A DNA stretch of 48,662 nt from IMG/VR virus record IMGVR_UViG_2547132418_000015, one strand, 5' to 3'. A program made the translations under genes and the position numbers. Each line of letters begins with the position of its first letter. The first letter of the stretch is position 1. Of the stretch, positions 1 through 48,662 are shown piece after piece. A model generated the notes under the pieces. That model worked only from the letters and a program-made list of their open reading frames with translations, was not told where the DNA came from and did not search any database. Source of the stretch: a virus (lineage: Duplodnaviria; Heunggongvirae; Uroviricota; Caudoviricetes).

Positions 1-692
1 CAAATACGGCATCAGTTACCGTGAGCTGCAGGAGATGCTGGCTGAACGCGGAGTGAATGTCGATCACTCCACGATTTACCGCTGGGTTCAGCGTTATGCG
101 CCTGAAATGGAAAAACGGCTGCGCTGGTACTGGCGTAACCCTTCCGATCTTTGCCCGTGGCACATGGATGAAACCTACGTGAAGGTCAATGGCCGCTGGG
201 CGTATCTGTACCGGGCCGTCGACAGCCGGGGCCGCACTGTCGATTTTTATCTCTCCTCCCGTCGTAACAGCAAAGCTGCATACCGGTTTCTGGGTAAAAT
301 CCTCAACAACGTGAAGAAGTGGCAGATCCCGCGATTCATCAACACGGATAAAGCGCCCGCCTATGGTCGCGCGCTTGCTCTGCTCAAACGCGAAGGCCGG
401 TGCCCGTCTGACGTTGAACACCGACAGATTAAGTACCGGAACAACGTGATTGAATGCGATCATGGCAAACTGAAACGGATAATCGGCGCCACGCTGGGAT
501 TTAAATCCATGAAGACGGCTTACGCCACCATCAAAGGTATTGAGGTGATGCGTGCACTACGCAAAGGCCAGGCCTCAGCATTTTATTATGGTGATCCCCT
601 GGGCGAAATGCGCCTGGTAAGCAGAGTTTTTGAAATGTAAGGCCTTTGAATAAGACAAAAGGCTGCCTCATCGCTAACTTTGCAACAGTGCC
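1..692 (+). mobile_element. IS26 (IS6 family), 3' part ending with the terminal inverted repeat; the 5' part is at the window end
   Basis: IS6-family transposase ORF followed by TTTGCAACAGTGCC at 679-692, the reverse complement of GGCACTGTTGCAAA at 48309-48322; positions 1-231 are identical to 48432-48662. Confidence 0.93.
2..640 (+). CDS. tnpA: IS26 transposase, C-terminal part (N-terminus at 48372-48662)
   Basis: ORF 35..640 is open back to position 2; translation continues the 48372.. ORF (MNPFKGRHFQRDIILWAVRWY...YRAVDS | RGRTVDFYLSSRRN...). Confidence 0.93.
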   Translation, partial: KYGISYRELQEMLAERGVNVDHSTIYRWVQRYAPEMEKRLRWYWRNPSDLCPWHMDETYVKVNGRWAYLYRAVDSRGRTVDFYLSSRRNSKAAYRFLGKILNNVKKWQIPRFINTDKAPAYGRALALLKREGRCPSDVEHRQIKYRNNVIECDHGKLKRIIGATLGFKSMKTAYATIKGIEVMRALRKGQASAFYYGDPLGEMRLVSRVFEM

Positions 693-6292: not shown

Positions 6293-8368
6293 TTACCAGC
6301 CTGTAATGTAGTTATCGCCCGCGTAAATATTCAGCCCCATACCATCCTCGGTGACGCGGGAACTGGTCAGACGTAACCCCTCGCCAAGTTCGACGCGCAG
6401 CGAGGCTTCCGCATTCACTTTTTGCTCCTGCGGTTCCTTATCCGTGGCCGTCCACTTCTGATACAGGTCGGTTACAAAACCGCCCAGATACTCCCCGGCG
6501 ACACTGCCCAGCGTGGCACCGGCAACCGTACCCAGCGGTCCGGCAAGGCTGCCAACGGCACCGCCGAGCCATGCACCGGCTGTACTGCCAATTGCGCCTG
6601 CTTTTTCATGGGTTGACGCCTGCTCATCCATCAGGACGGGGGCAAGCTGGAGTGCCCCCATTACCGGGCCACCCAGACGTGACAACGCACGCCCCGCGCC
6701 TTTCCCCATCCAGCCCAGCGCCCCGGCACCTTTTGTCACAACCCGACCGATCGCACTGCCTGCAAGTTTGTTTCCGATACCGGAAAACCCCCCGCCAGCG
6801 GCACGCCCGGCATCAGCCAGCTTTCCGACCGCTCCCGTAACCAGTTGCCCGGCAGCACTGCCTGCAAGCCTGCTCAGAAGACCGGATTTACCGGGTAAAG
6901 GTAATGGTGCAGGCCGTGCCGTTACCGGTACGCCGGGTGGGGGTAATGCCAGAACAGGGCGTGGTGCAGGTAATGCCAGCGGCTGTGGCCCGGACAGCAA
7001 TAACGGCTGGGGGGGGAACAGGGGCGTCATGCCTTTGCCTTTCCGGGTGCGACCACCACGGCCACCGCTTCCGTAACCGCCGAACCCGTGAGGCCAGTTA
7101 GTGACAAACACACGCTGAATGCCGGTGCCCTGCAACAGCGTCTCAGACGTCATGGCATCCGGGACCGGCAGACCTGCCTGCCCACGTTTGCGGTTTCGCA
7201 TCCAGCGCCACATACGACGCCCGGTTTTAAACGGATAACTGGCAACCTGCCATGAGGGGTTTGCCACGGCCCAGCCTGCTCTCAGGGCTTTATTGGCAAG
7301 CCAGACAGACACCAGAACAGCAGCCAGTTTTTTCAGGCTGACAATATTCTGGTCAACCCATGCCAGCGCATCTTTACCCGGTTTCAGCCAGCGCCATAAT
7401 TCCTGCGCCGCGATTTTTACCTTTCTGAACGTGGTCAGGAATTTCTGACCAATGTTTTCTGCCAGTGCGTCCAGCTCCCCGGATTTATCCGCCGCATCGT
7501 GCCAGTTAAGCACCCGGCGCATCTCGTTCTTGATTTCTTCAAAGGGGCCGCTGTTTGCCACCTTCGTGCGAAACTCAAGCAGGTTGCCCTCCATCTGGGC
7601 CATCATCCCGTCCCAGGAGTTCATGGCAGCCGCCTGTGCGCCTTCTGACTGCTCCAGCAGGGTCCGGAATACCGTCAGAATGGCTTTCTTGCCCAGCTTG
7701 CCTTTTTCACCCAGCTTACGGATTTTTTTCTCATCCTTACCCGTTGCATCTGCCAGCACCTTGTAAACGTTGATACCGTAACCGGTCAGCAGGTTGGCGT
7801 CCGCCGCCGTGATTTGCTGGCGGGCAAACATCTGTTTGAACTGTAACGAAGCCCCCTGCGCGGTGGGTAAATCCCAGCCATGCATCGCGCCCTGATTCTG
7901 TAGCATGGTGATGAACTGTTTTACCTGGGCGTCAGTCATGCCAAACGCCGTTGATGTGCGGATTTCCTGCAGAACGCCGCCCAGCCCCCAGGTGGTTTCT
8001 TTTGCGTTCTGCTTCGCCCACGCCATCATGGCCTGTGCTCTGGCCTTATCGCCGTGATACAGCGAGTTCATGGCGATAATCTGCTGCTCACGCTGGGCGG
8101 CGGCACCAATAAACAGTTTATTGGCGGTGTAACCCACGCCAGCGATACCCAGCGCCCCGGCTGACAGCATTCGGAATGTACGGGTTGACAGTGAACCCAT
8201 TCTGTCAATGGCACCAGAAACGCGCACAACCTCCATACGCAGGGCACGAAGGGAACTTTGTCCGCTACGGGACAGGGCGTTTATCTGGTTCGAATACTCG
8301 CGGGAACGCCGGGAAAGATTGCCATTAAGATCAATAATGACAGACGCCTTTAAGCGTTTCCCGGTCAT
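6293..8368 (-). CDS. Tail tape measure protein
   Basis: 691-aa ORF starting MTGKRLKAS with a Gly/Ala/Pro-rich C-terminal part, between chaperone and baseplate genes. Confidence 0.85.
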
Positions 8369-10828: not shown

Positions 10829-11059
10829 TTACTCCGTTTTTTTCAGCGCAGCGTCGGTATCATCCGCCGTGTTTTCGGTGCTCCCGACTTCAACCACATC
10901 AGTGTTTTCGGTGCTCCCGACTTCAACCACATCACCGGCTACAAGGCGACGTATCCAGAAACTGTTACGGGGCTTTTCTTCTCCCTCAGGCGCCAGTAAT
11001 TCCATCGTGAGCGGGTCACGGATGGTTTTTCCCTCTGCGGGTTTAATTTTCAGCATCAT
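10829..11059 (-). CDS. Small tail-associated protein (Mu gp38-like) with internal 11-aa tandem duplication
   Basis: 76-aa ORF containing DVVEVGSTENT twice. Confidence 0.6.
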   Translation of the reverse strand: MMLKIKPAEGKTIRDPLTMELLAPEGEEKPRNSFWIRRLVAGDVVEVGSTENTDVVEVGSTENTADDTDAALKKTE

Positions 11060-15156: not shown

Positions 15157-16472
15157 TTATTCACCTCCACATGCCCCTCCAGTACGTCAATCATCCCGTC
15201 AGCAATCGCGGCTTCAAGCGACTGTGCAGATACGCGGCTGATACTGACCAGCACATCCGCCCGGTCATTCTGTTTGCTGACAGCCTGCGATGTTCTGACC
15301 ACAACTTTTGCAGTGCCGTCGCGGGTTGCCACAACATACAGCAACTGGTGGTTCTCCCTGTCCCACAATACCGCCTGTGGTTTTGCCATCAGCGACGGCA
15401 GACGCTGTAAATCTTCCGGTTTCAGGGCGGCATCAGCAGTGGTCGCCAGACTTTTCCCGTTCATCACAAGCAGACGGGCTGGCATATTCCCGGTGCGCTG
15501 ATGTACGGCTTCAGCCACGGATCCCGTCATAAAACCCAGCGCCCGGATTTCATGACCGGTCTGACGTGATCCTGCCAGGCGTTTAAGCCAGAGGGAAAAA
15601 GCAAGCTGACGCTCCCGGCTGTTATTCAGCGTCTGCACAACCTGCTCACGCAGCTGCGCGTCGTGAATTTCCACCAGTTTTCGAATCAGTGCCTGATCCG
15701 TACCAAATGCTGCCGAACCGGGGTTATATGACCAGCCCACATCCGGCGTCATTTTTACCTGACCGTTGTCAAACGTGGTTGACGATGTGCGGAAAATCTC
15801 GCCGGTGCTTTCATCCGTACCGGCATCCACTTCGCGGGTATTCATGAATGACGCACCATAACTGACCTGTAGCCCCAGTTCTTTCATGCGGGCCGCAGAC
15901 AGCGCCCGGACGCGACAGCGGCAGCGCCAGCCGTTCGGCGGGTAATGCGTCTGCCAGAAAATGTCGTCATACCGGAAAACCACATTGTGCAGCCGCGCAT
16001 GTTCCGGGCGCGTTCTGCTGTCCATAACGGCGACATACTGCCAGTACGGATACAGGTCCGCCGTGTTCATCATCTGCGCATAACGTCCCGCCGCATATGC
16101 TGTACGGGTGTTGACGTCATAAATGGTTGCCAGACGACGCGGACTGCCCAGCTCAATTTTCTTCGCGTTTCCGTCTGTATCCACGATGATTTGTTTTCCC
16201 CACCATCCGAGTTTTTGCAGCCGGGGGGCCAGTGTGCGGGTAAATTCCTCACGGGTGATACCTTCACTGACAGCCCGCTCCACTTCCTCACGGATTGTGG
16301 TCAGTACATCCATCCGGGTGGCTTTGGCAACGGTAAAGGCGCGGGCGTGCGCGTCTGCCAGTTGTTCGTACCAGTTCCAGGTGATGTTGTAGCCTTTGGC
16401 GCGGAAATACGCGACAGCCTCCTTTGGCGGGAGGCGTGCGGCATACGCCAGATCAATGGTCTGCTGCGGCAT
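15153..16472 (-). CDS. Head morphogenesis protein (Mu F-like)
   Basis: ORF 15153..16508; ATG at 16472 (MPQQTIDLAYAA...) has a GGGGG ribosome-binding site; the 16508 start is GTG. Confidence 0.82.
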   Translation of the reverse strand: MPQQTIDLAYAARLPPKEAVAYFRAKGYNITWNWYEQLADAHARAFTVAKATRMDVLTTIREEVERAVSEGITREEFTRTLAPRLQKLGWWGKQIIVDTDGNAKKIELGSPRRLATIYDVNTRTAYAAGRYAQMMNTADLYPYWQYVAVMDSRTRPEHARLHNVVFRYDDIFWQTHYPPNGWRCRCRVRALSAARMKELGLQVSYGASFMNTREVDAGTDESTGEIFRTSSTTFDNGQVKMTPDVGWSYNPGSAAFGTDQALIRKLVEIHDAQLREQVVQTLNNSRERQLAFSLWLKRLAGSRQTGHEIRALGFMTGSVAEAVHQRTGNMPARLLVMNGKSLATTADAALKPEDLQRLPSLMAKPQAVLWDRENHQLLYVVATRDGTAKVVVRTSQAVSKQNDRADVLVSISRVSAQSLEAAIADGMIDVLEGHVEVNK

Positions 16473-17991
16473 CCAGACGCCCCCATATATCGGCAACAAA
16501 AATGGCACGGGTCAGCATGTCGATAAGTTCTGCATCATCCATCTGCGGATATAATGAAGCGGCTTTGTTCATGGCGGCTTCCGGGCCATCTTTCAGCACA
16601 GAAAAAATGACGGGTTTCAGCAGGGGATCAACCGAACGCTGCCAGTCTTCCGGTGACACGCCCATCCGGTCGATATCATCCTCCTGCGGGATATCTTCAG
16701 CGGATAATGCGGCTTCTTTCTGCGGACCGTTATCCGGGACAACCGGTTGAGCAGTAAACACGGCTTCGTCACCGACCGGCTGTGGAATATGGAGTTTTTC
16801 CTGTATCCAGGAGACCGGAATACGCATTCCCGCCGCCAGTTTCGGAATGGCGTCAGACAGTGCCGTAATATCACCCGCTTCACTGGTATCAAACACAATG
16901 CCCGGCAGGCGGTTAATATCAATGGTGCTGTCACTGTTCAGTGCCAGCAGGGGATAAATCAGGTCACGGTTAATACTGCGGGCAAGCTGGCCCACATCCG
17001 CGTTACGGATTTCCCGGCGAACCTCATCATGCACTTCACCCAGCGACCGTGCACCTTTATCGCCGGCCTCTGTGGTCAGGGTGCCGCCCAGAATGGCTTT
17101 TGAAATCGCTTTTTCTGCCCAGCCAATCATCGCCATAAAGGGGTCTGACTGACCATCTGCGGCGCTCTGAAAATCCAGCGTCATCCCCATCGGAATAATG
17201 CCACCGGCACGTCGCCCGATATCCATCACGGCCTGCATCAGCGTGGCTTTCTCACGGTTCGTGGAGCCGGTCGGATATTTACCGACGCGCATGGGGAGTC
17301 CGTAAATTTCCAGAAACTCTGCAAAATCACGCACGGAATAGTTTTTAAAAATAAAAGGCCAGATAAGCGTGCGCACAAGGCCATTGGTGCCAACGTACCC
17401 GGTGCGGGATTTGGCCCGGTGCATAAACCAGCCGAACGGTTGCAGCTCCAGCCCGTGATAAGACGCATCACACAGGCGTAATTCGTTCAGATTGTCGGGG
17501 TTCGCACAGAACAGCGCCGGATCGCGATGATGCAGCGCCACCGGCACGCGCATTTTGCCCAGCCATCCCCATTCAATCTCCTGCATGGAATAACCCTTGA
17601 GAATGGCATCACCGGCATCAAACAGGGCATCTTCAAACCACGCCGCATCATGCAGATATTCATTCAGCATGTCGGCGTCTTTTTTCTCCTGTGCGCTGGC
17701 ATCACGTGCCGGAGCGATGCGCCATTCCAGCGCCTGAATGGCAAGCCGGCGTTTGCTCAGTTCGGAAAAAAGGTGGGTGTCCTTTTCTTCCATATCAAAG
17801 GCCAGGTCAGCCTGTGCGGTCAGATCACCGCGTTCGGCATCACGCAGCATCTGCGCGGCCCGGTTCGGCGTCACACCACTGGAAGGATGCTCCTGCGTAC
17901 GCTTCATGACCATTGCCAGCTCATCGCTGCGGGTCTGCATTTCATCGTCAAAATCAAACGGCTGCCCGGAAATATCCAGAATACGGCCCAT
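16453..17991 (-). CDS. Portal protein (Mu H-like)
   Basis: 512-aa ORF directly downstream of the large terminase. Confidence 0.88.
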   Translation of the reverse strand: MGRILDISGQPFDFDDEMQTRSDELAMVMKRTQEHPSSGVTPNRAAQMLRDAERGDLTAQADLAFDMEEKDTHLFSELSKRRLAIQALEWRIAPARDASAQEKKDADMLNEYLHDAAWFEDALFDAGDAILKGYSMQEIEWGWLGKMRVPVALHHRDPALFCANPDNLNELRLCDASYHGLELQPFGWFMHRAKSRTGYVGTNGLVRTLIWPFIFKNYSVRDFAEFLEIYGLPMRVGKYPTGSTNREKATLMQAVMDIGRRAGGIIPMGMTLDFQSAADGQSDPFMAMIGWAEKAISKAILGGTLTTEAGDKGARSLGEVHDEVRREIRNADVGQLARSINRDLIYPLLALNSDSTIDINRLPGIVFDTSEAGDITALSDAIPKLAAGMRIPVSWIQEKLHIPQPVGDEAVFTAQPVVPDNGPQKEAALSAEDIPQEDDIDRMGVSPEDWQRSVDPLLKPVIFSVLKDGPEAAMNKAASLYPQMDDAELIDMLTRAIFVADIWGRLDAAADH

Positions 17992-19646
17992 TACCAGCCC
18001 CCTCGTTCAAACTGGTGATAATCATCAAAATCATCGTTATCAACATCATCACCACGGTGGCGTGGTGGTAGCGGACGAACGCTGTCCTCGTCGATAACAA
18101 AACCATTCATATAAGACGCCCTGACAGCCATACAGAGCGCCACGGCAAAGTCGCCATGTCGTCGGCCTTTACCACCTTCATCTTTTGTGCGCCCCTTATC
18201 AATCTGCGGAATACCTTTGTCCACCTTGATGTGGAGCAGGTCATCAAGTGTGGTCTGGTGCCGGGCAATCGTGATGTTCTGCGCCTCAAACTCGCCTTTC
18301 AGTTTGGGCATCCACTCCTGATACCAGGATGCGGTCAGATTCACACAGTCGATCATCTCCGGGCCATAAATCAGACGGGCGGCTTCTGCCAGATAACCGC
18401 CGTTACCGGTGGCATCAAATGCAGCGCCGGTAAAACGGGGCAAACGGGACAGAATGAATAAAAGGATTTGTCGCTGCTGGTCATAGGTCACATTACGCAG
18501 CTCCACGCGGAAACATTCGCGTTTGCGTAAGTCAGGCGTGATGGCAAGCGGCACAAACACCGTCAGGTCGCCACGGCGTGCAAAGTCTTCGCCCAGTACG
18601 TGTTTATTGAGCGGCGACAGCGCATCGAGCAACGGGAGCAGCTCCTGTTCACACCAGTCCTGAACGATGCCGTGGCGCATTTGTGGTGTCAGCGATTCAA
18701 AATCGTCCGGGGCTTCAAAACGCAGAACCGGGATATCCCGCGCGGGTGTCATGGCAGCTTCAATCAGCACGCGTGACAGATAAGCGCCCCCGGATTTTTT
18801 AGGAATGCAGCCGTATTCCTCGTCGGCGCTCTCTTTATTCGGCGCATTCCGGTACAGGCCATCACGCCAGGCTTTTTCCGCTTCCGGCGACCACGGCTGA
18901 TTCGTGACGTAACAGATACGCCGGTACAACCCGTCAGCGATGGCATCATCCAGCGTGATGCGGTGAACGCTGTAATCCTTGCGCCCCTCGCGCGCATCCT
19001 GAATGTACTGGTTAAACAGGTTATCGACGCCGTTATGTGTCGATATGATGCGCACGCTGGCACCCCACATGTTTAGTGCAAAGGCCGCTTTCAGCAGTTC
19101 GTCCAGGGCTTCATGGAATGCCGCCTCATCAATCACCACGTCCCCCTGCAAACCACGCAGGTTAGACGGACGGCTTGACAGCGCCTGTATCTTAAATCCG
19201 CTGTTCGGAAAGCGGATCATGTAGGTGAGGATTTCTTCTTTTTTGTCGCTGTCCCAGAAGGTCTGCTCCCAGACGTCAGCCTTTGCCAGCTGGTTAAAGG
19301 CGCGGGCAAACAGGGCACAGGCGGCGATGTATTCCAGCGCCATTTCCTGACGGGAACCCACATAAAAGACGTTGCGACCACCGCGACGCTTCGGCTTTGC
19401 GGCCGTCATGACATTGCGGCCCGCTTCAGCCCATGTCAGACCGGTACGACGGGATTTTTCAGCGATGCAAATCTGGCTTTCATCCTCAAACCAGCGGCGC
19501 TGATAGCCCAGAAAAACCGGTTCATTGCGGGGCTGTGCTTCCCCGATATCGGTCACGATATTCACGCCGAGCAGTCCGGCTTCCTCACGCAGGTTGATTT
19601 TGCGGGGCGCATGAAGGGCTTTAAGATTGTTTTCTCTGGTGTTCAT
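17991..19646 (-). CDS. Terminase large subunit
   Basis: ORF 17991..19838; start placed at ATG 19646 (MNTRENNLKALHAPRK...) to avoid overlap with the small subunit. Confidence 0.88.
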   Translation of the reverse strand: MNTRENNLKALHAPRKINLREEAGLLGVNIVTDIGEAQPRNEPVFLGYQRRWFEDESQICIAEKSRRTGLTWAEAGRNVMTAAKPKRRGGRNVFYVGSRQEMALEYIAACALFARAFNQLAKADVWEQTFWDSDKKEEILTYMIRFPNSGFKIQALSSRPSNLRGLQGDVVIDEAAFHEALDELLKAAFALNMWGASVRIISTHNGVDNLFNQYIQDAREGRKDYSVHRITLDDAIADGLYRRICYVTNQPWSPEAEKAWRDGLYRNAPNKESADEEYGCIPKKSGGAYLSRVLIEAAMTPARDIPVLRFEAPDDFESLTPQMRHGIVQDWCEQELLPLLDALSPLNKHVLGEDFARRGDLTVFVPLAITPDLRKRECFRVELRNVTYDQQRQILLFILSRLPRFTGAAFDATGNGGYLAEAARLIYGPEMIDCVNLTASWYQEWMPKLKGEFEAQNITIARHQTTLDDLLHIKVDKGIPQIDKGRTKDEGGKGRRHGDFAVALCMAVRASYMNGFVIDEDSVRPLPPRHRGDDVDNDDFDDYHQFERGGW

Positions 19647-19653
19647 AACCCTC

Positions 19654-20244
19654 TCATGCCTTACCCAGCAGCACATCACGGATACGCTGCTCCAGCTCTT
19701 CGCTGATGCCATCCTGCCCGCGCAGTTCTTCACTGACGGCGTTTGCCGCTTCTTCTGCGAATGCCTGGCGGATTTCTTTCTCGCGCCGGTGGCTGGACAT
19801 TGCCGTGGATTCCAGACGCTGTGCCGCCAGCATGGCATTTTTCAGCAGGTCAATATCCACGTCAGATTCCGGGTTTTCGATTTGCCGCATCATGGCCTTA
19901 AAAAGCTGGCTGCGGGCCATTTCCAGAATCAGCTTTGTGGTTTCTCCCATTGGCTTGTCGCCAAGTTCTGCGGTCAGTGCTGACGTCATTTCACGCATCT
20001 GTCGCAGGTTATGGCCTACCTGCTCGACGTTCGTCGCGTAACGGTTCAGACCGGAACGGGAGAGTTTCATCTCATCCGGCAGGCCTGCGTCTTCAATCAG
20101 TGCGTTAATTTCTTCCAGAATGCGGGCCTGTGGGATCGCTTTATCACGCAGCATTTCATGCAGCGTTTTACGTACGTTTTCCGGCAGTAAATCCACTTTT
20201 GAAGCCCGGCCCCGTGTTTTCCTGTCCATCACGCCTCCTGTCAT
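19654..20244 (-). CDS. Terminase small subunit-like protein (Mu gp27-like)
   Basis: 196-aa ORF immediately upstream of the large terminase. Confidence 0.75.
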   Translation of the reverse strand: MTGGVMDRKTRGRASKVDLLPENVRKTLHEMLRDKAIPQARILEEINALIEDAGLPDEMKLSRSGLNRYATNVEQVGHNLRQMREMTSALTAELGDKPMGETTKLILEMARSQLFKAMMRQIENPESDVDIDLLKNAMLAAQRLESTAMSSHRREKEIRQAFAEEAANAVSEELRGQDGISEELEQRIRDVLLGKA

Positions 20245-29374: not shown

Positions 29375-31363
29375 TTAAATGGCTTTTTTACGTCTGTTCT
29401 GTTCCAGAATATCCAGCGAATGATTCAGATATTCATCACGCTCAGTTTCGTATTCATCATCACGCTCCTGATTCTTCACCCGTTCCGTATTACCGGAAGG
29501 CCGGAAAATGCCGACAATTCGTGATTCTGGTGCTTCAGGTTCGGCTATCTGCGGCAGCAGCTCTGCCACTTCCAGTGCATCCATTTGTTTCTGTGCCTTA
29601 ATCGCTGCTTTCGTCGCAGATTTCAGTTGTTTCTGGCGGCGGCGATATTCACGGCCTGCCGCAGCATCATTAAACGCAACAGGTGCCAGACATTCCGCTT
29701 CACAGATAAACCGACCGTCCAGGGTGTAACAATAAACCGTGCTGTGTAGCTGCTGCGGATCAAACCTGACCACAACTTTTTTCACGCCGGCATTCATTAA
29801 TGCCATGTTGTAATAAACGTTTTTCGCGCCTTTAAGGGAGCCGCCAACTTTAAGCGTAAACTCGCCTTTGCGTGAAACGTTCACCGCCTCGGCAGGCAGT
29901 AACAGCATCCGTTTTTGTTCTTCGGTTGGCTTACGCACAATCGTTCTGGCGTATTCACGCTCGAAAACATCATCAAACGAGAGTTTGCCCCCGCACATTT
30001 CTGTTTCACGGCCTGTTCTGGCATTGAACATCGCCACACCTTCGGCAAGGTTTTTCAGAAACAGCTCTGCATCAACAGCGCGGTTGCCATAGTTATCAGG
30101 TTTTGCCTGCGGATTTGGCCCCGTATATGCGCCAGCCAGTGCCGGATGCTTATCAACGTATTCCTCAAGCCCACCAACACCGAAAGCACGTTCAACAGGT
30201 TTTGCCTGGCCCCAGCCTTTACCGGCAACAACGCTTGTCCAGTGCATTTTCGCACCCATCAGTAAAAACAATCCCTTTGGATCGTCTTCTTTCACCTTAA
30301 AGCGGTAGCGATTGGGCGCGCCTCCCGTCAGCCATTTATTCGCAGCACCACGGGTGTTATCAATGGTGATGTGAAAATCCTCCGGGATACCGTAGCGAGT
30401 CACAACATCCATGAACGAGAGGCGAATTGAATCAATGTTCTCGCTCACATCGCAGCGCCAGCCCAGAATTTTTCGGGTTTTCACATCCTGCCAGAACCAT
30501 GTTTTCGGGCGGATCACATCACCGTTAAACCAGCGTACAAAGACGTTATGCAGATAACCGTCGCCGTTGATCCACTGCATGGCGTCCAGGTGTTCCACAG
30601 TTCGCTGCTGTGCCGGTATCAGATGCATCAGTGCATGTTCACCTTCACGACAGGCAACAACCATTGCCTCGTCCAGTTGCTGAATCCGGCGAAAGGCCGT
30701 GGCACGGGAGGGAATCCTCCAGCCATGCTCGCGGGCTGCCAGTTCCAGACGCTCATAACATTTGCGGAAGGCGGGTTTTTCCGGTCGCAGATAATCTGCA
30801 ATCAGAAACTGCCAGGCATCCTCGTCAAATTCACTTTTGTGAACATTGCGACGGGATGCACCACGTCCATCAACAAGTGCAGCCGCCCAGTCAGGCTTCG
30901 CAAACTTCTGTACCTGGTAATACTTGTCCCGCAAAGTGGATGCGCTGACCTGGTAATGCCCTGCAACGGTCGCAAAAGCCGTTTTCGTTGAAATCCCCTG
31001 GTTCAGCATTTCGTCTGCAGCCTGAACCGCAGGCAACCATTTTTCAGCAAGTCTGCGCTGGGAATCGCTGGCTTTATCCCATTTGCTCCACAGCACCTCA
31101 CGATCATAATCATGGGCTTCCAGCGTGGGGCGGGCGATTTCAAAACGGCCCAGGCTTGTTTCAATTCTCCCTTGTTGCAACAGAATTTCAGCACGTAATG
31201 CGACAGGGAATGATTTGATATTGAATTCAAATGATACACCTTTAGTCCCTGCAACCTGTCTGAACTCCCAGCCTTCTCTTTGTGCCTTACGTGTAATGTT
31301 AGTGGCTTGCTTTGGTAAACCTGCCAAACCGAGCAACTCTTTTGCTGTATACCATTCTTTCAT
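29375..31363 (-). CDS. A: DDE transposase A
   Basis: 662-aa ORF, Mu A-like over most of its length with a divergent N-terminal DNA-binding region. Confidence 0.93.
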
Positions 31364-40070: not shown

Positions 40071-40565
40071 CTGTGGGAAACAGGTCAACTTTAATGGACG
40101 CTCCGGACTATGGGAAACAGGTCAACTTCGCGGACGGCCCGGACTATGGGAAACAGGTCAACTTCACGGGCGGCCGGGAGTGTGGGGAACAGGTCAACTT
40201 CGCGGACGGCCCGGACTATGGGAAACAGGTCAACTTCACGGGCGGCCGGGAGTGTGGGGAACAGGTCAACTTCGCGGACGGCCCGGATTATGGGAAACAG
40301 GTCAACTTCGCGGGCGGCCGGGACTGTGGGAAACAGGTCAACTTTGCAGACGGCCCGGACTGTGGGAAACAGGTCAACTTCGCGGGCGGCCGGGAGTGTG
40401 GGGAACAGGTCAACTTCGCGGACGGCCCGGACTAAGGGAAACAGGTCAGCTTCTCGGACGGCCCGGACTATGGGAAACAGGTCAACTTCTCGGACGGTCG
40501 GGAGTGTGGGAAACAGGTCAAGTTAGGCAAGCACTATGGGAAACACAGCAAGTTCAGTATCCCCC
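40071..40565. repeat. Array of 13 direct 36-bp iterons plus one degenerate unit, downstream of rep
   Basis: Unit TGGGAAACAGGTCAACTTCGCGGACGGCCCGGACTA repeated at 36-37-bp period. Confidence 0.9.
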
Positions 40566-44879: not shown

Positions 44880-45046
44880 AAACCAACATAGGTGTAACAT
44901 ATCCATATGCCGGGCATCTGCATAGGCAAAGCATACGCATATACCTACCATCTGCATATGTAACACCTATACAAGCCGGGCTTGCAGGCATATACTTCAC
45001 CTATGCGGGAATACTCCCTGGCACACTCAGCATATGAGGAAAAACC
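44880..45046. promoter_or_regulatory. Repeat-rich region upstream of vapB
   Basis: Inverted repeat ATAGGTGTAACATAT / ATATGTAACACCTAT; palindromes ATGCCGGGCAT and CAAGCCGGGCTTG; AGGAAAAACC ribosome-binding site before ATG 45047. Confidence 0.4.
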
Positions 45047-45277: not shown

Positions 45278-45690
45278 AGAAAACCTGGATGCTCGATACT
45301 AACATCTGCTCGTTCATCATGCGCGAGCAGCCGGCAGCGGTGCTGAAGCGCCTGGAGCAGGCGGTGCTGCGCGGTGATCGCATCGTGGTCTCGGCCGTGA
45401 CATATGCCGAGATGCGCTTCGGCGCCACCGGCCCGAAGGCCTCGCCGCGCCATATTCAGCTGGTCGACGCGTTCTGCGCGCGCCTCGATGCCGTCCTGCC
45501 CTGGGACCGCGCCGCGGTGGACGCCACGACGGACATCCGGGTGGCGCTGCGCCTAGCCGGGACGCCGATCGGCCCGAATGACACGGCCATTGCCGGGCAC
45601 GCCATCGCGGCGGGCGCCATCCTGGTGACGAACAATGTGAGAGAGTTTGCGCGGGTCCCGGGCCTGGTGCTGGAAGACTGGGTGAAATAA
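45274..45690 (+). CDS. vapC: VapC-type PIN-domain toxin
   Basis: 138-aa MKKTWMLDTNICSFIMREQ... with conserved acidic residues. Confidence 0.85.
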   Translation: MKKTWMLDTNICSFIMREQPAAVLKRLEQAVLRGDRIVVSAVTYAEMRFGATGPKASPRHIQLVDAFCARLDAVLPWDRAAVDATTDIRVALRLAGTPIGPNDTAIAGHAIAAGAILVTNNVREFARVPGLVLEDWVK

Positions 45691-45834
45691 TCCCGTAATA
45701 ATTTCCGTGACGGAGACGACAGACATGAATGGGCTTTGTTGAATAAATCGAACTTTTGCTGAGTTGAAGGATCAGATCACGCATCCTCCCGACTGGATTT
45801 GCCCCTATATTTCCAGACACCTGTTATCACTTAA

Positions 45835-45914
45835 TGGAGTGACCCCGAGCCCGTAGACAAATCTGCCCTATAGTTGGAGTGACCCCGAGCCCGTAGACAA
45901 ATCTGCCCTATAGT
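45835..45914 (+). repeat. Perfect 40-bp tandem duplication between the IS end and orfA
   Basis: TGGAGTGACCCCGAGCCCGTAGACAAATCTGCCCTATAGT at 45835-45874 and again at 45875-45914. Confidence 0.95.
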
Positions 45915-45933
45915 TTGAGCATAGGAGGAGTCT

Positions 45934-46218
45934 ATGGGCACATCACGTTTTACCCCTGAATTTAAGGAAGAGGCCGTCCGCCAGATCACCGAGCGGGGCT
46001 ATTCTATTGCTGAAGTATCTGAACGGCTCGGCGTGTCGGCGCACAGCCTATATAAATGGCTCCGGGCTGTTAAGCCTGACAACAGTGGACAGCAGGCACA
46101 GGATTTACTGGATGCCAGAACAGAAATTCTCAGGCTGAAAGCACAGCTTAAACGCACTGAGGAAGAGCGGGATATTCTGAAAAAGGCAGCGCGGTACTTT
46201 GCAAGGGAGCCCGACTGA
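45934..46218 (+). CDS. IS3-family transposase OrfA
   Basis: 94-aa ORF with helix-turn-helix and leucine-zipper-like C-terminus ending ...DILKKAARYFAREPD; AGGAGG ribosome-binding site. Confidence 0.85.
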   Translation: MGTSRFTPEFKEEAVRQITERGYSIAEVSERLGVSAHSLYKWLRAVKPDNSGQQAQDLLDARTEILRLKAQLKRTEEERDILKKAARYFAREPD

Positions 46219-46265
46219 AGTATCGCTTTATCAACGATCACCGTGAAATCTGGTCGATCGTTACA

Positions 46266-46620
46266 ATGTGTCGGGTCCTTAAGGTTGCCCGTGCCGGATT
46301 TTATGTCTGGCTCCATAACCCTGTATCTGCCGGAGAAAAGGATAACCAGCGACTGCTGGAACTCATCCGCGACTCCTATACGCTGAGTGGTGGAGTTTAC
46401 GGTTATCGCAGGGTTCATGGCGATCTTCGCGAAATTGGCGAAGTGTGCAGCAGAAACCGGGTTGCCAAAATCATGAGGAAAAACAGGATTCAGGCTATAC
46501 ATGGTTATAAAGTGCCACGCGGGAGCCGGGGACGACCGTCACTGATAGCGCCTAATCACGTGCGGCGTGAATTTACTGTAGTGAAGCCCAATCAGGTGTG
46601 GGTCACCGACATCACCTACA
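46266..46620 (+). pseudogene. IS3-family transposase OrfB, N-terminal part, interrupted by a group II intron
   Basis: Ends ...NQVWVTDITY, then the reading frame enters intron sequence beginning GTGTG at 46621. Confidence 0.8.
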
Positions 46621-48308
46621 GTGTGCCCGGAGTTCAGGGCGGGCATGGATGCTTAAATGAACCGCGAGTCTGTCTGGAATATTGAACCGGTAACTCACGA
46701 TGAGAAACCCAACAATCCCACCGGGTGTGACGGTGGAGAACCTGAGCGGCAGTGACCTGCGGCATGCCCGCAGGGTGATGTAACCCGCTGACAACGGGGA
46801 TTGAGGCGAGATCACTAAGCCGAGATGATCCTCAAGGTTAAGTACTGAAAGGCTGAAGAACATGAACCCGTTAATCCGCCTCTGTGGGTTGAAAACGTCA
46901 CCACGGCCTACGTGATCTGACAGGCCGTGCAGGAGGAACTGGCAGTGATACGTAAGCACTGCCGGTCGAAGGTGTTTTGACATGTATGCGAAACACCGGG
47001 GCAGCAGCGTCTATCACGCTTGCGTTGCTGACTTCTGCCAACTTGCGGCAAGCAAGGATAAAGAGTGCGACGGGCAGCCTCCTCAGTATGCCTGAGTCCA
47101 GGCAGGTAAACCGGGGAAGGTCAGCGACGGATGTTAAGGGGGCATGGCTCCGATGACGCGCTGGCTGGCGGAGCTTCCGTAGTAGTCCGCGATGGGGAAA
47201 GCCCATTACATGGCGAAGGGAAGCAGTTTGAATGTGTTTGCGACGTGAATTAACTGACCTAACGAGGTGAAGACCTTTGATAATCAGCGAAATGCAACGC
47301 AAGCTTGCCACATGGGCAGCCACCGATCCGTCCCTACGGATTCAACGGCTGCTGCGTCTGATAACACAACCAGAATGGCTGGCTGAAGCGGCGCGGATCA
47401 CGCTTTCATCAAAGGGGGCGCATACCCCCGGCGTTGATGGCGTGAACAAAACAATGCTACAGGCCAGACTGGCTGTTGAGCTGCAAATCCTCAGGGATGA
47501 ATTACTCTCAGGCCACTACCAGCCCTTGCCCGCCAGACGGGTTTACATCCCTAAAAGCAACGGCAAACTGCGACCACTGGGTATCCCCGCGTTGCGGGAT
47601 CGTATTGTTCAGCGGGCCATGCTGATGGCGATGGAGCCGATATGGGAGAGTGATTTTCATACGCTCTCATATGGCTTCCGGCCTGAGCGCAGTGTCCACC
47701 ACGCGATCCGCACGGTGAAATTACAGCTCACAGACTGCGGTGAAACCCGGGGACGCTGGGTGATTGAAGGCGACCTGTCCAGTTACTTCGACACCGTACA
47801 TCATCGACTGCTGATGAAGGCTGTACGCCGCAGGATCAGTGACGCACGTTTCATGACTCTGCTGTGGAAAACCATCAAGGCGGGACATATCGATGTCGGT
47901 CTCTTTCGGGCGGCCAGTGAAGGTGTGCCACAGGGCGGTGTTATATCGCCGCTATTATCGAACATCATGCTGAATGAGTTCGATCAATACCTGCATGAGC
48001 GCTACCTGAGCGGGAAAGCCAGAAAAGATCGGTGGTACTGGAATAACAGTATCCAACGGGGCCGAAGTACGGCGGTCAGAGAAAACTGGCAGTGGAAACC
48101 CGCGGTGGCGTACTGCCGCTATGCCGATGATTTTGTCCCCATCGTCAAAGGCACCAAAGCACAGGCGGAAGCCATCAGGGAGGAGTGTCGGGGTGTGCTC
48201 GAAGGCAGTCTGAAACTCAGGCTGAACATGGATAAGACTAAAATCACCCATGTTAATGACGGCTTTATCTTTCTGGGGCACAGGATCATTCGCAAACGCA
48301 GTCGTTAT
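46621..48308 (+). mobile_element. Group II intron 2 (5' part), inserted in IS3-family orfB and truncated by IS26
   Basis: Starts GTGTGCCCGG; about 656 nt of structured 5' region, then a reverse transcriptase ORF that runs into the IS26 terminal repeat at 48309. Confidence 0.8.
47277..48308 (+). pseudogene. Group II intron reverse transcriptase/maturase, C-terminally truncated by IS26
   Basis: ORF 47277..48335 with HTPGVDGVNK, YIPKSNGKLRPLG, YCRYADDFV motifs; last residues are read from the IS26 terminal repeat. Confidence 0.85.
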
Positions 48309-48662
48309 GGCACTGTTGCAAATAGTCGGTGGTGATAAACTTATCATCCCCTTTTGCTGATGGAGCTGCACATGAACCCATTCAAAGGCCGGCATTTTCA
48401 GCGTGACATCATTCTGTGGGCCGTACGCTGGTACTGCAAATACGGCATCAGTTACCGTGAGCTGCAGGAGATGCTGGCTGAACGCGGAGTGAATGTCGAT
48501 CACTCCACGATTTACCGCTGGGTTCAGCGTTATGCGCCTGAAATGGAAAAACGGCTGCGCTGGTACTGGCGTAACCCTTCCGATCTTTGCCCGTGGCACA
48601 TGGATGAAACCTACGTGAAGGTCAATGGCCGCTGGGCGTATCTGTACCGGGCCGTCGACAGC
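48309..48662 (+). mobile_element. IS26, 5' part beginning with terminal repeat GGCACTGTTGCAAA
   Basis: Terminal repeat at 48309-48322, transposase start at 48372; 48432-48662 is identical to 1-231. Confidence 0.93.
48372..48662 (+). CDS. tnpA: IS26 transposase, N-terminal part
   Basis: MNPFKGRHFQRDIILWAVRWYCKYGISYRELQEMLAERGVNVDHSTIYRWVQRYAPEMEKRLRWYWRNPSDLCPWHMDETYVKVNGRWAYLYRAVDS. Confidence 0.93.
   Translation, partial: MNPFKGRHFQRDIILWAVRWYCKYGISYRELQEMLAERGVNVDHSTIYRWVQRYAPEMEKRLRWYWRNPSDLCPWHMDETYVKVNGRWAYLYRAVDS

Follow-up and report, generated by a model that had tools for sequence, protein, structure and literature searches.

Duplicated left end of ISEc15 at a known IncR plasmid locus and a possible inner-edge target preference in the ISEc15 clade

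Introduction

At the ends of IS21, Mu and Tn7, multiple terminal repeats are constant, required and found in every copy. The terminal repeat of one mobile element can also be the landing site of another: IS4321 and IS5075, which belong to the IS110 family, have a fixed insertion position within the 38-bp repeats of Tn21-type transposons. IS911, a member of the IS3 family, reportedly joins about 3 bp outside the tip of a target repeat and in this way makes a junction of a right and a left inverted repeat (IRR-IRL). Targeted insertion of IS911 next to its own inverted repeats is credited to Loot et al. 2002 and Rousseau et al. 2008 in the passages of PMC2909936 that cite them, and the IS3-family elements IS1397, ISKpn1 and ISPsy8 insert into REP/palindromic units (PMC1525189).

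Here we analyze a perfect tandem duplication of 40 bp at the left end of an ISEc15 copy in IMG/VR record IMGVR_UViG_2547132418_000015, a stretch of 48,662 nucleotides that we refer to as the window. The surrounding region is known: in its passages on locus A of IncR plasmids, PMC9412624 describes a stack of delta-IS102, delta-IS2 and ISEc15 by vagCD, in which delta-IS102 is truncated by IS2 and IS2 in turn by ISEc15, and names the element interrupting the latter ISKpn60. This is the very locus found in the window, beside vapBC (vagCD). The locus-A passages of that paper do not mention a duplication, a polymorphism between one and two units, or the fact that the IS2 piece is a whole IRR.

Results

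Identity of its two ends over 226 nt (1–226 = 48437–48662) shows that the window is a circle of 48,436 bp with 226 nt written twice, and the IS26 at its end accordingly continues at its beginning (48309–48436 plus 1–692). From about 700 to 33000 the sequence is phage-like (e.g., 1577–2659, 6293–8368, 16453–19838 and 29375–31363), with genes for baseplate, tape measure, portal, large terminase and a transposase; the last matches the PHROG "transposase" family phrog_310, which is read as Mu-like. This region lies on an IncR-type backbone carrying rep, parA, a polymerase gene and vapBC, an arrangement that resembles a small resistance-type plasmid carrying a transposable prophage. Other repeats in the plasmid include a tandem array in the interval from the partition genes to the replication initiator gene (40074–40521; 12.4 copies of a 36-nt unit, 85% matches), which is probably a centromere array or a set of iterons. 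A 256-codon frame in the phage-like region opens with another perfect tandem duplication (10869–10934, 33 nt x 2), and a weak repeat lies upstream of vapB (17 nt x 3.4, 65% matches, 44904–44960).

The duplication itself is part of a pile of insertion-sequence ends (Table 1). On the plus strand of 45400–47400, the end of vapC (to 45690) is followed, from the outer to the inner layer, by 62 nt of an IS102/IS903 end, the 41-nt IRR of IS2, a spare 40-nt left terminal inverted repeat (IRL) of ISEc15 and ISEc15 itself, whose own first 40 nt are separated from the orfA ATG by TTGAGCATAGGAGGAGTCT. The terminal repeat of the outermost layer (45732–45793) is one that we take to be of IS102/IS903 type. 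The initial annotation had described the next layer as a 47-bp IS2-like terminal repeat; the attribution to IS2 holds, and the length was too long because six bases (45788–45793) belong to the IS102/IS903-type fragment. What remains has its tip at 45794 and its inner edge at 45834, with the rest of IS2 missing, and matches over its full length, at 40 of 41 positions, the 41-bp IS2 IRR oligonucleotide TGGATTTGCCCCTATATTTCCAGACATCTGTTATCACTTAA that served as a binding substrate in PMC3219604.

Table 1 Features at and around the junction (positions in the window)
Feature	Position	Strand	Basis
IS102/IS903-type end fragment, 62 nt, starts GGCTTTGTTGAATAAATCG	45732..45793	+	sequence reading
IS2 right inverted repeat (IRR), complete, 41 bp, starts TGGATTTGCCCC	45794..45834	+	identity to published IRR
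Outer (spare) copy of ISEc15 nt 1–40, left terminal inverted repeat	45835..45874	+	exact copy of 45875–45914
Inner copy = ISEc15 IRL, contiguous with the element body	45875..45914	+	aligns with the single unit of one-unit copies and ISEc24
ISEc15 nt 1–746: IRL, orfA (45934–46218), 5' part of orfB	45875..46620	+	RefSeq, NCBIfam, colinearity
Predicted RNA hairpin, IRL nt 15–24 (GCCCGUAGAC) paired with orfA start region (GUCUAUGGGC)	45889..45939	+	folding prediction
Group II intron, 5' part, starts GTGTG, in orfB	46621..48308	+	reverse-transcriptase reading frame from 47277
IS26	48309..48662, continues 1–692	+	GGCACTGTTGCAAA at 48309 (+) and 679–692 (-)

The two 40-bp units are copies of ISEc15 nt 1–40, both reading TGGAGTGACCCCGAGCCCGTAGACAAATCTGCCCTATAGT (40 nt each). 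Their exact tandem repetition, noted initially, was recovered by exact search and by Tandem Repeats Finder (period 40, 2.1 copies, 45835–45919), and no exact pair of 40-nt units arose in 100 shuffles. Microhomology at the borders of the 80-nt pair is limited to a single T at 45915 (1 nt). The orfA ribosome-binding site lies behind the repeats as first annotated (AGGAGG at 45922–45927, with the ATG at 45934). Two of the interpretations offered at that stage, a duplicated end and a composite junction, both describe the structure correctly, as the repeated unit is an ISEc15 end and the pair adjoins a complete IS2 IRR that itself adjoins an IS102/IS903 end. The hairpin predicted between the IRL and the start of orfA has a folding energy of -24.9 kcal/mol (z-score -2.9) and is retained in the fold of the two-unit form; its apex would lie at nt 40/41, the joining point of the extra unit. 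A promoter scan of the junction detected nothing and thus gave no evidence of a promoter made by the duplication.

DNA that is 100% identical to the element is annotated in RefSeq as "IS3-like element ISEc15 family transposase". Judged from its predicted IS3-type DDE transposase (orfA plus orfB), ISEc15 belongs to the IS3 family; both parts match NCBIfam NF033516 (orfA, E 2.8e-16; orfB part, E 1.2e-31) under the full-length cut-off, because the transposase gene is split. The window copy is colinear with intact ISEc15 up to nt 743–746, and intact copies are annotated as a single transposase gene across both reading frames. In the intact copy L005, imperfect terminal inverted repeats of the form 5'-TG...CA-3' are present (IRL, TGGAGTGACCCCGAGCCCGTAGACAAATCTGCCC; IRR, read inward as the reverse complement, TGGAGTGACCACGCTCCGGTAGACAGTTTCTGTCC). 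Beyond nt 746 the window copy gives way to the 5' part of a group II intron, whose reverse transcriptase/maturase matches NCBIfam TIGR04416 (E 4e-88). Rfam returned no match on 45600–48662, where the 3' intron domains are missing, and the intron is therefore called from its reverse-transcriptase frame and its GTGTG start. The ISEc15 of the window is dead, as it is split by the intron at 46620/46621 and the intron is itself cut by IS26 at 48309. Consequently, the spare end is an inert scar that is inherited with the plasmid locus. A group II intron occupies the same orfB nucleotide (46620/46621) in the window, in L001 and L002, and in ISEc24 of E. coli chromosomes (L003), and ISEc24 is 86% identical to ISEc15; orfB of the two elements looks like a homing site for the intron.

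The duplication is neither unique to this plasmid nor new here: a 50-nt probe across the unit-unit junction matched exactly in 92 plasmid records, which come from at least six genera and numerous laboratories, and intact transposed copies have it as well. The initial annotation had asked whether other copies of the element carry the repeat as a normal feature; it is common to the plasmids just named, and it is not the usual state of the element. At locus A the junction between IS2 and ISEc15 was found exactly in about 347 plasmid records, of which 38, or about one in nine, are covered by a 90-nt probe spanning the IS2 stub and two units; the others (about 309) have one unit. Within locus A, one-unit and two-unit copies alike are found both with and without the intron. 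One-unit copies are represented by an intact ISEc15 (L089), a copy cut at nt 912 (L004) and a copy with the intron (L002), each of which lacks the outer unit at the same position, and two-unit copies by L092–L095, cut at nt 912 and free of the intron, and by the window and L001, which have the intron. Unit number or intron presence has therefore changed more than once, and the order of unit gain or loss and intron arrival is irrecoverable. Loss of a unit through slippage between the two is likely at this locus. Over its left 746 nt, the window copy agrees at every base with the one-unit copies at locus A and differs by 4–5 single-base changes from two-unit copies elsewhere. An incoming copy, if there was one, has thus left no trace.

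On its right side, the locus-A ISEc15 of related plasmids is flanked by a fragment of the BREX gene brxL (L089, 42592 downward; L092, from about 6870 onward), and there is no target duplication around the intact copy. The possibility that this flank is the rest of IS2 was ruled out by the brxL fragment, which places the locus-A ISEc15 at a hybrid junction, and recombination between two ISEc15 copies is the simplest explanation for it. The brxL flank is gone from the window, behind IS26. An IS110-family element, about 91% identical between the two loci, interrupts orfB both at locus A (L092, 5477–6855) and in L008 (5908–7286). At both loci it follows the same His-Ser-Asp codons; the orfB in question is that of ISEc15 in the former and that of a ~78%-identical relative in the latter. 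In L008, orfB resumes directly past this element; at locus A, ISEc15 nt 913–1199 are missing beyond it. These observations suggest that the IS110-family element site-specifically targets the IS3 transposase gene.

The two-unit form has moved as a unit. In plasmid pKPN1705-1 of K. quasivariicola (L005), an intact two-unit ISEc15 of 1270 bp lies between GTG and GTG, and 36 plasmids contain the reconstructed empty site, which has one GTG, at 100% identity within an ISNCY transposase gene. From the target duplication and the empty site it follows that the outer unit acted as the left terminus and that the two-unit ISEc15 transposed as a whole. A second two-unit context is frequent in large K. pneumoniae plasmids (L090), and outside the IncR locus, two-unit copies are present in about 72 large Klebsiella plasmids.

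We surveyed 80 loci encoding OrfA relatives in species-representative genomes and took as the left end the conserved tip TGGA(C/G)T, which lies 59 nt ahead of the ATG; 64 of the loci have a distinct left flank. The element's own first 39–40 nt are duplicated in the same register in 11 of these 64 relatives, and the other 53 have one unit. Self-duplications occur in Mixta, Enterobacter, Scandinavium, Apirhabdus, Sodalis, Marinobacter, Salinisphaera, an uncultured gammaproteobacterium and a metagenome-assembled genome of the Planctomycetota, and their lineage-specific unit sequences indicate repeated origin and not inheritance. Five loci have an inverted copy of their own IRL directly past the IRR. 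In three plasmid loci (L006, L007 and L008), the outer unit is of the ISEc24/ISEc15 type and the inner unit and body are those of a relative with about 78% identity. In the two-unit element of Mixta mediterraneensis (L010, 2401–3700), the body differs from ISEc15 at 115 of 746 positions and both 40-nt units are identical to the ISEc15 unit; the end has either been exchanged or is conserved to a much higher degree than the gene.

Foreign ends occupy the same place as the spare unit. The left tip of these elements is very often preceded, without a spacer, by a stub of 39–41 nt that resembles an IS3-type repeat and points in the same direction. When flanks were scored at each offset from the outermost own tip with a weight matrix derived from the clade's 40-nt left ends, 8, 17 and 3 loci exceeded the 99th percentile of the background at offsets -1, 0 and +1, compared with about one locus per offset elsewhere, up to 100; the reverse-strand control had no such peak. 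These counts are minimums because the matrix was built from the clade's own repeats only and misses less similar elements, such as those of the ISSen4 type and the 'TGTAGTGGCACA' type. One stub, termed X-type (TGAATCGCCACGGATAATCTAGACACTTCCGAGCCGTTGA), is the IRR of a common IS3-family element in 1900 plasmids; about 300 plasmids have this IRR joined to a clade IRL, and the outer flanks of the junction are of at least four kinds. Other stub types are the end of an ISSen4-like element (L026) and the whole IS2 IRR in the window. For the composite of X-type stub and insertion sequence in L098, an empty site of a joint insertion was sought and none was found.

One nested insertion is preserved with both sides of its target. 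The two-unit element of L026 interrupts an ISSen4-like end at nt 40; TAA is duplicated around it, and the target continues on the far side. A self-hit would be recognizable on the right by an IRR tip, 0–4 nt and then sequence from nt 41, and a scan of metagenomes with this pattern returned one contig, L099. Its junction, ...GGGGTCACTCCA, then ATT, then TTGAGCATAGGAGG..., consists of an IRR tip, 3 nt and a second, diverged copy that runs from nt 41 to its own IRR, which abuts 39 nt of an X-type IRL. The ATT equals nt 38–40 of the left end in the close relatives L011 and L035, as expected for a 3-bp duplication. The contig ends before the left half, so that the stub side is not on it. The corresponding junction of unit, insertion sequence and remainder for ISEc15 itself was found in none of 72,556 plasmids, nor was a self-hit junction found in viral contigs; for the plasmids, this fits rapid loss of one of two adjacent direct copies of 1.2 kb. 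Several features accord poorly with simple insertion. The rest of the target element is generally missing beside clade copies, and of about 17 surveyed copies for which both flanks are available, no more than about 3 have a 3-bp target duplication. Duplications of this kind are present in L005 (GTG), L026 (TAA) and L051 (GTA). In L049, L053 and L057 the right flank opens with a short inverted copy of the stub tip, and the two flanks of L041, like those of L064, are palindromic. The missing target remainders, scarce duplications and odd flanks leave room for a non-standard integration chemistry.

Discussion

We consider the 40-bp duplication to be probably the result of an end-targeted nested insertion, in this case a self-hit. 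Elements of the ISEc15 clade would tend to integrate at the inner edge of IS3-family terminal repeats of about 40 bp, 39–41 nt from the tip, usually with the incoming element's own left end facing the stub. If the target was another ISEc15, the product would consist of nt 1–40 of the old copy, the whole incoming copy, and a 3-nt duplication followed by nt 41 to the end of the old copy. Such a product could be reduced to a perfect 40-bp duplication by homologous recombination between the direct copies, or the duplication could be carried away by a later transposition that used the outer tip as its left end. As for the choice of site, the integration complex may be drawn to repeat-like DNA, with the transposase probably bound to the target repeat; this is the likeliest means, given that the core of the clade repeats, CCCC...(T/G)(A/G)GAC, recurs in the stubs. 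The apex of the predicted hairpin at nt 40/41, where the IRL would pair with the orfA start, is another possible cue. Inspection of the X-type IRR by eye revealed no obvious hairpin centred on the insertion site.

Duplication of the 40 bp in place, by replication slippage or unequal sister-strand exchange, would yield the perfect head-to-tail pair with its one shared T at the borders. It would also account for a copy number that is polymorphic and independent of the intron at locus A, as in an unstable tandem repeat, and for the identity of the window copy with one-unit copies of the same locus; its coincidence with the tip would then be due to chance or be aided by the hairpin, whose apex is at nt 40/41. 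We nevertheless find this origin rather unlikely, because microhomology of just 1 nt hardly sets the borders, and because the same borders, namely the cleavage tip and nt 39–41, where foreign stubs end, recur in at least 10 lineages with differing units. In one of these lineages (L084) the sequence past the unit has no resemblance to the tip. Slippage, moreover, cannot generate the mixed unit pairs of L006–L008, which come from different elements, and offers no route to foreign 40–41-nt stubs in register or to the junction of IRR, ATT and nt 41 in L099. The extra unit could also have reached this locus with no insertion there, from a two-unit ISEc15 at another place in the same cell, through gene conversion or unequal recombination. 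In favor of this route, two-unit copies are frequent in Klebsiella plasmids, and the four combinations of unit and intron fit exchange between co-resident plasmids. However, homology on the left would amount to just 40 bp, the single-base changes that mark the known two-unit donors, one of them as near as 69 nt from the tip, are all absent from the window copy, and the first origin of two-unit copies would be left unexplained, so that we judge this route highly unlikely.

Whether two tandem repeats are instead the built-in left-end architecture of ISEc15, providing two transposase-binding sites in the manner of IS21, Mu and Tn7, with one-unit copies as degraded forms, was also weighed, and seems quite improbable. 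Two-unit copies are intact and have transposed, those in the ~72 large Klebsiella plasmids lie outside the IncR locus, and several relatives have the arrangement. Yet functional copies do not all carry the repeats: a single unit is present in about 309 of the roughly 347 locus plasmids, in the intact L089, in ISEc24 and in 53 of 64 relatives, which speaks against the initial proposal of subterminal transposase-binding repeats as a standing feature, and one-unit elements of 1230 bp were found as whole contigs. In addition, the units are identical within nearly every lineage and differ between lineages, as expected for a recent and repeated origin, and the right end's own repeat has no matching doubling. 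An artefact of assembly or sequencing has nothing in its favor beyond the general risk that attends repeats and, with the unit-unit junction exact in 92 independent plasmid records, a negligible chance of being the explanation.

Beyond the window, the end-targeted insertion that we favor for the duplication may be one instance of a rule of the ISEc15 clade, which we put forward tentatively and with somewhat less than even confidence. Under such a rule, the clade's own and foreign IS3-type repeats would serve as beacons, integration would take place at the inner edge, some 40 bp in from the tip, one orientation would predominate, target duplications would often be lacking, and the outcome would be piles of 40-bp ends and spare outer ends that can be used. 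In the literature searched, which did not extend to ISfinder, we found no description of the duplication or of the target rule, and inner-edge stacking across the ISEc15 family appears to be undescribed there. The feature in the window is in itself ordinary, a duplicated and inert left end at a known plasmid locus, and it means very little for this plasmid, where it survives as a fossil, the element being dead and the IncR region around it well known. In plasmid typing, the one- or two-unit state is an unremarked 40-bp marker (38 of about 347 locus carriers have two units), although it does not track the intron and is hence not for naive use as a lineage marker. With the inner-edge rule, if true, the IS3 family would have two kinds of repeat-directed target choice instead of one. 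The rule would also explain the delta-IS ends, one repeat length each, that are piled beside these elements in resistance plasmids, and show how an element gains a spare working outer end.

None of the systems compared here matches the ISEc15 clade on all points. With IS21, Mu and Tn7 it shares the presence of more than one repeat resembling a transposase site at one end, and the outer repeat of two-unit ISEc15 works as a terminus, but the second ISEc15 unit is sporadic. IS4321 and IS5075 likewise use the terminal repeat of another mobile element as a landing site, at a fixed position; they differ in transposase family and chemistry and show neither self-targeting nor stacked stubs. The predicted hairpin apex at the ISEc15 self-target and the palindromic nature of some clade flanks recall IS1397, ISKpn1 and ISPsy8, IS3-family members whose targets are defined by sequence or structure, whereas the targets of the clade are terminal repeats of insertion sequences and not REP, and the X-type IRR lacks an obvious hairpin by eye. 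IS911 offers a parallel within the same family, in that an IS3-family element picks a target resembling its own terminal repeat and self-targeting brings copies into contact. Unlike in IS911, however, the tip of ISEc15-clade elements abuts the inner edge of the stub, 39–41 nt from the stub tip, mostly in direct orientation and thus in an arrangement other than the IRR-IRL junction.
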